Shown: positions 2,211-2,381, counted from the stretch's first letter. The stretch: 13,368 bases of DNA from a virus (IMGVR_UViG_2630968543_000001), one strand, 5' to 3'. A program made the numbers and translations. The notes: generated by a model from the sequence alone, not told the origin.

Positions 2211-2381
2211 CTACTTGGCTCCATCTTAACAGTGGTTTTTCAATAGTTAGATTTGATGCTCATTTCTGACAATTTAAACATTGCAAATGTATTGACTGTC
2301 AGATCTGAGCATATTACATTGTGACCATTCAATCTGCTCACAAATGACTATTGACACATATTTTGATGGGTGTGACTACTT
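2211..2381. promoter_or_regulatory. Divergent promoter/operator region between repressor and replication genes (copy 1)
   Basis: Plus-strand candidate sigma70 promoter TTGACT (2292-2297), 17-nt spacer, TACATT (2315-2320). Minus-strand candidate TTGTCA (complement of 2267-2272), 17-nt spacer, TAACTA (complement of 2244-2249). Repeated TGAC-core motifs include the palindrome TGACTGTCA (2293-2301), with inverted ATGCTCA (2256-2262) / TGAGCAT (2307-2313). Confidence 0.5.

Follow-up and report, generated by a model that had tools for sequence, protein, structure and literature searches.

The 13,368-nucleotide (nt) viral stretch IMGVR_UViG_2630968543_000001, called the window below whenever its full length is meant, is by its sequence a filamentous (inovirus) prophage of Escherichia coli of the CUS-1/YpfPhi type. 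Between its leftward XRE-family repressor gene and its rightward replication initiator gene, rep, lies a 171-bp gap that very probably constitutes a genuine, if unexceptional, region for switching the phage on and off. Sequence comparison leads us to propose, with a probability of roughly 0.8, that this gap is the immunity and control region of a temperate phage whose XRE repressor acts on 18-bp pseudo-palindromes. The core of a preliminary description of this DNA, a duplicated divergent region in which an XRE repressor on repeated operators controls the rep promoter, has strong support from comparative evidence. The genes, the gap and the predicted promoter, together with second copies that recur with a period of 3865 bp, are as follows.

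1764-2210, minus strand: repressor gene, 148 amino acids (aa), with an XRE/HTH_3 N-terminal domain and a helical C-terminal domain (Pfam, PHROG); second copy at 5629-6075
2211-2381: control region between the repressor gene and rep; identical second copy at 6076-6246 (no strand assigned), with its motif and matrix matches duplicated at +3865
2292-2320, plus strand: predicted promoter of the rep/structural operon, comprising -35 TTGACT (2292-2297), a 17-bp spacer and -10 TACATT (2315-2320), from consensus and log-odds scans; second copy at 6157-6185
2382-3434, plus strand: rep, a pII-type replication initiator and the first gene of the operon proposed to be repressed (Pfam Phage_CRI, E=1e-73; G2P_X_C, E=5e-34); second copy at 6247-7299

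The positions of the open reading frames (ORFs) bear out the 171-bp gap given in the preliminary description, and the gap recurs as an exact repeat at 6076-6246, as had also been claimed. The same description had singled out the palindrome TGACTGTCA as an operator-like motif. The palindrome occurs twice, at 2293-2301 and 6158-6166, where chance alone would yield about 0.08 matches in the window, and it does overlap the -35 hexamer TTGACT of the rep promoter, the sole strong promoter-like site. It is not conserved, an 85%-identical relative having TGACGGTCA instead, and it is better seen as merely the meeting point of the -35 hexamer and an operator half-site. The inverted pair ATGCTCA/TGAGCAT had been placed at 2256-2262 and 2307-2313; the first coordinate is correct, while the second heptamer actually lies at 2306-2312. 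A third ATGCTCA occurs at 2193-2199, within the first codons of the repressor. In the whole window the two heptamers match 8 times against 2.3 expected, a count reached in 0 of 200 shuffles. A repeat finder returned 2256-2282 and 2286-2312 as a 27-nt inverted repeat with 78% complementarity, as well as TGCTCA-N4-TGAC at 2257 and 2335 and a weaker TGCTCA-N4-TGCC at 2194.

Rather than being independent elements, these motifs are the strong and weak half-sites of a single predicted operator unit, an 18-bp pseudo-palindrome with the consensus ATGCTCA-N4-TGAGCAT, whose half-site centres lie about one helical turn apart. The multiple TGAC-core motifs of the preliminary description thus exist, but TGAC is a weak form of the half-site TGAGCAT, seen as TGACAAT, TGACTAT and TGACCAT. 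Likewise, ATGCTCA and TGAGCAT are not the two arms of a single inverted repeat around the region; they are the strong outer halves of two adjacent operators.

To score the unit independently of the window, an 18-column matrix was derived from ten sites of the related loci L012-L015 and L005 only, and the whole window was scanned on both strands. The comparative set from which these loci come was made up of loci around repressor homologues (designated here by L numbers), accompanied by an alignment of the repressor proteins. The four best distinct sites all fell within 2193-2351, and the next best elsewhere in the window reached 8.7 bits. Among 200 Markov shuffles, the maximum score averaged 11.1 +/- 2.2, and the highest was 18.2. 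The four predicted operators, O1 to O4, and one additional half-site are listed below.

2193-2210, plus strand: candidate operator O1, ATGCTCATTGTTGCCCAT, 15.2 bits (fourth-best), spanning codons 1-6 of the repressor gene, start codon included; second copy at 6058-6075
2256-2273, plus strand: operator O2, ATGCTCATTTCTGACAAT, 21.9 bits (best in the window), with its centre at about -62 relative to the start predicted for rep transcription; second copy at 6121-6138
2295-2312, minus strand: operator O3, reading ATGCTCAGATCTGACAGT on that strand, 15.6 bits (third-best), extending from the promoter -35 through the spacer; second copy at 6160-6177
2334-2351, plus strand: operator O4, CTGCTCACAAATGACTAT, 20.3 bits (second-best), in a roadblock position at about +8 to +25 of the rep promoter; second copy at 6199-6216
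2322-2328, plus strand: lone extra half-site TGACCAT at the predicted transcription start, forming an inverted pair with a TGCTCA 7 nt downstream

Neither O1 nor O4 had been named in the preliminary description. The centres of the four sites are spaced by 63, 39 and 39 bp, and O2 and O3 together form a 57-nt imperfect palindrome (2256-2312). A TGAGCA-N5-7-TGCTCA arrangement, like the TGACCAT/TGCTCA pair at the predicted rep start, is found in L012, L013 and L034.

The evidence that carries this interpretation is comparative. In the Vibrio locus L005 and in L009, L012, L013, L014, L015 and L034, all with repressors that share 55-85% identity with that of the window, the repressor gene is always divergent from a replication gene. 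In every relative (at least 8 phages), a left site lies +51.5 to +54.5 from the repressor ATG and a right site lies +118.5 to +135.5 from it, and these positions are held although the intergenic DNA of the relatives is otherwise unalignable. In L012, L013 and L034, the 18 bp of the left site form a perfect palindrome (ATGCTCATTAGTGAGCAT or ATGCTCATTTGTGAGCAT), from which L014 departs at one base (ATGCTCATTTGTGAGCAC); the left site of the window, O2, is a degenerate version of the L012/L013/L034 palindrome. The motif is also found alongside this repressor family in elements of Vibrio, Aeromonas and Photobacterium. Four heteroimmune loci that served as negative controls (L010, L011, L017 and L018) gave no intergenic match to the ATGCTCA matrix. 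The middle site, O3, is limited to the window, YpfPhi and the L009 lineage, and the position of O1 (centre -8.5 from the repressor ATG) holds weaker sites in L012, L013 and L015.

Selection was assessed in nine close variants, the most divergent of which departs from the window at 42 of 220 positions. Only 5 of 42 half-site positions (12%) were variable, against 55 of 115 positions (48%) in the N4 spacers and other intergenic DNA taken together (Fisher p=3e-5); separately, the spacers varied at 6 of 12 positions and the remaining intergenic DNA at 49 of 103. Changes in O2 among these variants were confined to the N4 spacer, and substitutions in O4 to the N4 spacer and the first base. The sole intergenic substitution that distinguishes the Yersinia pestis version of the region from the window likewise falls in the N4 spacer of O4. 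This footprint shows that the half-sites are under purifying selection.

The half-sites also change together with the repressor. In L010, L011 and L033, whose repressors are 72-75% identical to that of the window, the recognition helix reads INVRTL and not ISVSTL (S38N, S40R), and the same two positions of the intergenic region carry ATGGACA-N4-TGTCC and AAGACA-N4-TGTCT; the ATGCTCA matrix gave null-level scores on all three loci. Residues S38 and S40 align with positions 27 and 29 of the 434 repressor, at the start of the recognition helix, where that protein reads the outer operator base pairs through Q28 and Q29. Such a joint change of half-site and recognition helix is what one would expect to see were the phage protein the reader of these sites.

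Repressor and intergenic region are, moreover, exchanged as one block beside a conserved rep. The rep of L010 and of L017 is 93% identical to that of the window, whereas the intergenic regions are 51-54% identical, about the level of unrelated sequence, and the repressors 74% and 54%. In E. coli genomes, similarity to such module-swapped relatives resumes exactly at the rep ATG. In L018 (E. coli Combat2C1, 2148-2499), where rep is 80% identical, the XRE repressor is replaced by an unrelated 60-aa regulator; the intergenic region there has repeated GAACTCA motifs, which suggests that another pairing of regulator and operators has been adopted at this location.

The predicted rep promoter would start transcription near 2327. 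In the log-odds scan, an equivalent rightward promoter was the top match in 10 of 10 loci, heteroimmune ones included, with scores of 11-14 bits (8.9 in L018) and intergenic positions from 67-82 to 95-110. The consensus scan gave two plus-strand sites and none on the minus strand, a total no higher than in shuffled sequence. The candidate face-to-face sigma70 promoters of the preliminary description are therefore not supported: besides the empty minus strand in the consensus scan, the minus-strand candidates of the matrix scan were weak and not conserved. One of them, TTGTCA-18-AACTAT (2272-2243), scored weakly and has its -10 in the most variable stretch among the close variants, and it was not adopted. 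Of the lysogeny-type XRE switch that had been proposed, comparative evidence upholds repressor-bound repeats that control the rep promoter, while the operator unit and the promoter pair had to be revised. On the repressor side, one element is conserved.

2219-2240, minus strand: conserved leader box upstream of the repressor ATG, with a Shine-Dalgarno (SD) sequence GGAG (2222-2219) preceded by a -10-like TGnTAAGAT (2231-2223)

The box is conserved among close variants and its flanks vary. An SD-like element precedes the repressor M1 by 8-9 nt in 8 of 8 loci inspected, and the adjoining TGnTA(A/G)nAT is the sole minus-strand -10-like element conserved across loci.

Other signals were considered in the same region. 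A GATC (Dam) site at 2303-2306 lies in the rep promoter spacer, within the N4 of O3, and occurs at a similar place in L009, L010, L011 and L017; as a conserved Dam switch it was not adopted, on account of its loss in the close variants L028 and L031. Searches of 1600-2600 for an Rfam family or riboswitch returned only spurious microRNA matches with E above 0.1, and a structured rep 5' untranslated region (UTR) was discarded when the folding of 2327-2400 gave z=+1.0.

From these predictions a simple scheme can be drawn. Repressor dimers at O3, inside the rightward promoter, and at O4 would block the binding or escape of RNA polymerase; with both sites occupied, rep and the downstream virion genes would be off and the prophage quiet. 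The same repression would confer superinfection immunity toward phages with the same module, and occupancy of O1 and O2 would most likely autoregulate the repressor gene. In YpfPhi, an endogenous prophage is reported to give partial protection against superinfection (PMC4266046). The host regulators RovA/SlyA may contribute to control (PMC4266046). The sequence itself establishes the motifs with their excess, conserved positions and constraint, their covariation with the repressor, the module exchange and the conserved rightward promoter; the parts of the scheme that we infer are repressor binding and any cooperativity in it, the oligomeric form of the protein, where transcription begins, the sign of autoregulation and the inducing signal.

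Several observations weigh against this interpretation. O1 lies in coding sequence, so its conservation may stem from constraint on the protein, and the scores of O1 and O3 fall within the range of the best shuffled matches (null maximum 18.2), so that these two sites are distinguished by location and not by score. The leftward promoter of the repressor gene was located neither by the consensus scan nor by the ten-locus log-odds scan, and the conserved TGnTA(A/G)nAT abuts the SD sequence, which means that transcription from it would begin after the SD. The motif ATGCTCA-N4-TGAGCAT was absent within the 5.4 kb examined around plasmid-borne 122-aa homologues of the repressor. For YpfPhi itself, a 2014 review states that a regulatory role of the repressor still awaits experimental demonstration (PMC4266046), and the reported binding of host RovA at the promoter region (PMC4266046) implies that the phage repressor is not the sole player.

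The 57-nt palindrome could be explained differently, as a hairpin in single-stranded DNA (ssDNA) that serves as a minus-strand origin or as an RNA polymerase promoter mimic, as in Ff phages, instead of as duplex operators. The complementarity of its arms, 2256-2282 and 2286-2312, is compatible with this, and the predicted ssDNA fold (-13.1 kcal/mol, z=-3.9) was matched by 0 of 200 shuffles; the virion is expected to carry the plus strand, and an alternative minus-strand origin was not identified in the window. The long palindrome is, however, restricted to the window, YpfPhi and the L009 lineage, whereas L012-L015 keep the left and right sites with neither middle site nor hairpin. In L009, arm complementarity is kept only in the operator parts, the 18-bp unit occurs outside any hairpin at O4 and O1, and the sequence of the half-sites changes along with the recognition helix of the repressor. 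We consider the hairpin explanation quite improbable as a replacement for operators, while a dual role of the palindrome, as operators and as ssDNA hairpin, may apply.

A still less probable explanation, to our minds, is that the repeats are sites of a host regulator (RovA/SlyA, LexA or another), with the phage helix-turn-helix (HTH) protein binding elsewhere or having a different role. RovA has been reported to bind the putative promoter region of YPO2274, the YpfPhi counterpart of rep, in Y. pestis, and a rovA mutant to show de-repression of phage genes (PMC4266046, citing Cathelyn 2006); in CTXphi, host LexA acts alongside the phage repressor RstR (PMC4439123). Against this, the motif shifts with the helix of the phage repressor while host and rep stay the same, L010 being also from E. 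coli and its rep 93% identical, and it accompanies the repressor family into Vibrio, Aeromonas and Photobacterium elements. In the region, the LexA box CTGT-N8-ACAG has only matches with 2 mismatches, at a chance rate (66 versus 49 +/- 7 expected across the window), so LexA/SOS control was rejected and nothing points to SOS control as in CTXphi. In AT-rich parts of the region, RovA/SlyA sites may well accompany the operators. That the motifs arose by chance in AT-rich promoter DNA, with no specific function, was suggested by the generic promoter scan, which gave no excess over shuffled sequence, and by the ease with which short motifs picked post hoc are over-read. The independent matrix test, the positions kept in at least 8 diverged phages, the selective footprint (p=3e-5) and the covariation all speak against chance, and by the first three of these that explanation is effectively refuted.

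Between O4 and rep lie two further elements.

2351-2356, plus strand: near-invariant TTGACA, abutting O4, 25 nt before the rep ATG (12-locus comparison)
2344-2385, plus strand: possible 13-codon upstream ORF, MTIDTYFDGCDYL, whose TGA overlaps the rep ATG (ATGA); a reading of the sequence that is not statistically compelling

TTGACA follows the right operator in 12 of 12 loci of the repressor family (the window, L005, L006, L009-L015, L017 and L034), often as ATTGACAGGGTTTT, whatever the operator sequence or rep type, and thus also beside the RstA-type rep of L014. It is absent from L018, with its related rep and unrelated regulator, and the close variant L025 reads TTGACG at this position. As a conventional -35 of rep it was rejected, being 25 nt from the ATG with no -10-like hexamer after it in the 12 loci; as a pII origin or nick site it was rejected because it is missing from L018, where rep is 80% identical, and present in L014. 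It is conceivable, though we regard it as unlikely, that TTGACA is a docking site for sigma-70 region 4 that is used with bound repressor, the repressor then being bifunctional. Such a repressor may block the main rep promoter and, in addition, either switch on a further start inside the operon that skips the rep initiation codon or trap polymerase there. The centre of O4 lies about 43 bp upstream of the start expected from TTGACA, which by analogy would correspond to lambda CI at O_R2 relative to P_RM. In a mirror arrangement, the conserved TGnTAAGAT 12 nt from O1 may give a near-leaderless maintenance transcript of the repressor, analogous to that of lambda cI.

Short ORFs end at or next to the rep start in L009, L012 and L015, and L010 has one that stops 7 nt short of it; the MTID start of the leader ORF recurs in L013, there in frame with rep. 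The annotated rep starts of L013 (492 aa) and L015 (505 aa) lie upstream of the right operator and TTGACA. These calls probably begin too early, and a downstream GTG/ATG with the (I)D motif better fits a pII N terminus.

The repressor matches Pfam HTH_3 (E=1.6e-9, 38.1 bits versus a cut-off of 23) and PHROG 3557, "transcriptional regulator" (E=4e-74). It gave no Pfam match to Peptidase_S24, the C-terminal domain of self-cleaving repressors of the lambda CI/LexA type, and its C-terminal half is predicted to be helical. The AlphaFold (AF2) model has a mean pLDDT of 76, rising to 86-91 over residues 11-70, with a confident five-helix HTH domain (residues 12-73) followed by C-terminal helices H98-110 and H116-145. 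Foldseek aligned the N-terminal domain with 434 Cro, P22 C2, SinR and C.AhdI at a root mean square deviation of 1.4-1.6 A, over about 62 residues for 434 Cro and P22 C2; the whole chain had only weak matches (E above 0.01), to two-domain repressors such as Stl, SinR and DdrO. The repressor is probably a dimer held by its helical C-terminal domain. A tblastn search of 50,697 phage records at E<=1e-5 returned only five Vibrio cyclitrophicus phages. The 122-aa homologues mentioned above, which are 55-65% identical and have the same recognition helix, are very abundant on conjugative plasmids of about 41 kb in E. coli and Salmonella; in one example (L016, Logan ERR13116298 contig, 41 kb), the gene lies at 2501-2869, just downstream of a resolvase gene. 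With no site in the 5.4 kb around them, these homologues were uninformative and were set aside as an independent test of the motif.

Among known systems, the closest parallel is the ig-2/RstR region of CTXphi. In both phages, an HTH repressor that lacks a protease domain and the replication gene are transcribed away from each other, with a compact intergenic region between them, of 138 bp with three RstR sites in CTXphi (PMC4762005) and of 171 bp with three or four predicted sites in the window. At least 8 relatives of the window have this layout as well. The CTXphi repressor blocks rep expression and gives immunity, and the window repressor may by sequence be likened to it. Variants of CTXphi carry heterologous immunity regions and RstR repressors, with cross-immunity not assured (PMC4439123), and a heteroimmune repressor plus intergenic module beside a conserved rep is thus common to CTXphi and the window family. 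L014 joins the window repressor family to RstA/RstB-type replication genes. The differences are that the rep of the window is of the pII/Phage_CRI type and that of CTXphi is RstA, and that, unlike CTXphi, the window has no LexA box beyond chance and no RstC-like antirepressor was identified in it. The operator sequence is unrelated to that of CTXphi as far as can be judged, and the likeness between RstR and the window repressor is that both belong to the HTH_3 superfamily.

The region also resembles lambdoid O_R-type regions (434, P22), in the 434 Cro/P22 C2 fold of the repressor, in the repeated pseudo-palindromes across divergent transcription units, and in the placement of the operator-covarying substitutions S38N and S40R where the 434 repressor reads outer base pairs. 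Unlike lambdoid phages, the window phage has no cro gene, no S24 autoprotease domain and no lysis, and the operon proposed to be repressed serves the replication and assembly of a non-lytic phage. The location of O4 downstream of the predicted start is closer to lac O1 than to O_R. In the Shewanella filamentous phage SW1, a divergent HTH repressor, FpsR, binds the rep (fpsA) promoter but does not bind its own promoter; the 621-bp intergenic region there has true face-to-face promoters with overlapping 5' UTRs of 601 and 314 nt (PMC4762005). In the window, by contrast, the region is 171 bp long, and sequence scans gave no minus-strand promoter-like site to the right of the plus-strand promoter.

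The inovirus gene set is represented by Pfam/PHROG matches to Phage_CRI, G2P_X_C, Putative_G5P and Coat_B. Beyond rep, the following genes were assigned.

3446-3763: G5P ssDNA-binding protein (Pfam/PHROG)
4052-4285: coat-B-like protein (Pfam/PHROG)
8215-9927: long pIII-like protein

RefSeq annotation of a near-identical prophage has a DUF2523 protein, a Zot-family protein and a GspD-type secretin following the pIII-like gene. Chromosomal matches in E. coli are 99.5-99.9% identical to the window, at least 80% of which is found in 88 of 5426 complete genomes; 2150-2450 occurs at 99% identity or more in 97 of the 5426, UTI89 among them. The Y. pestis NCTC5923 locus matches the window at 99.8% nucleotide identity in the repressor gene and again in rep, with 99.4% in the intergenic region between them, and the strain encodes two copies of a protein 100% identical to the repressor. 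The gene order of YpfPhi/CUS-1 (YPO2273, intergenic region, YPO2274) is that of the window, and with these identities the window is the same element. The YpfPhi intergenic region has been "believed to be involved in transcription initiation" (PMC4266046); in the literature searched on YPO2273/YPO2274, YpfPhi and CUS-1, we found no operator sequences, mapped promoters or transcription starts.

The window differs from YpfPhi/CUS-1 in the cargo genes left of the repressor, which comprise a DUF6953 protein and a DpnII/MboI-like nuclease. This cargo (104-1664, minus strand) encodes, besides the DUF6953 protein, one of 264 aa whose restriction endonuclease domain is of the DpnII/MboI type (E=7e-59) and one of 140 aa with no assigned function. 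Related prophages carry other cargo here (STM4504 family, DUF3892, ECs_2282 zinc-binding), so the slot left of the repressor is variable.

A second difference concerns the repeat. Tandem arrays occur in related E. coli genomes, as for YpfPhi/CUS-1, but the window has a 3865-bp partial tandem repeat instead of whole-genome repeats: 1721-5587 equals 5586-9452 at 100% identity. The repeat joins 5585, inside the pIII-like gene (intact copy GCTGCC|GTTAATGCC), to 1721, with junctions at 5585/5586 and 9450/9451 and a 2-nt GT microhomology. Position 1721 is in the apical loop of a hairpin, GTGCAGT-GTTGGTAAT-ACTGCAC (1710-1732), just 3' of the repressor gene, and the loop GGT/AATAcTG resembles the f1 pII nick site. 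The CTXphi protein RstA cleaves a hairpin loop between G and T (PMC4439123). The 3865-bp unit looks like a mini-genome from aberrant rolling-circle termination that marks the probable plus-strand origin, and from the location of the junction this hairpin, rather than TTGACA (2351-2356), is the likely origin. The same junction was found in 1 of 5426 complete E. coli genomes, STIN_95 (L037, NZ_CP054965; locus 8239-20267), where the unit occurs three times, as two truncated copies and one full prophage, like RS1-CTX arrays. Because the cargo left of the repressor differs in STIN_95, the junction is common to prophages with different cargo.

Taken together, these results confirm and refine an expected mechanism rather than reveal a new one, and they define the operator map of YpfPhi/CUS-1 computationally. 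They provide testable candidate operators at four positions, a promoter, and a specificity code that relates S38/S40 of the recognition helix to half-site bases 4-5. The predicted sites could be used as probes in electrophoretic mobility shift assays, for immunity-typing PCR and for the design of de-repressed phage mutants. YpfPhi and CUS-1 are the filamentous prophages that have been tied to fitness in the plague bacillus and in invasive E. coli K1, and the comparisons show that enterobacterial inoviruses swap repressor-plus-operator modules, as CTXphi does.

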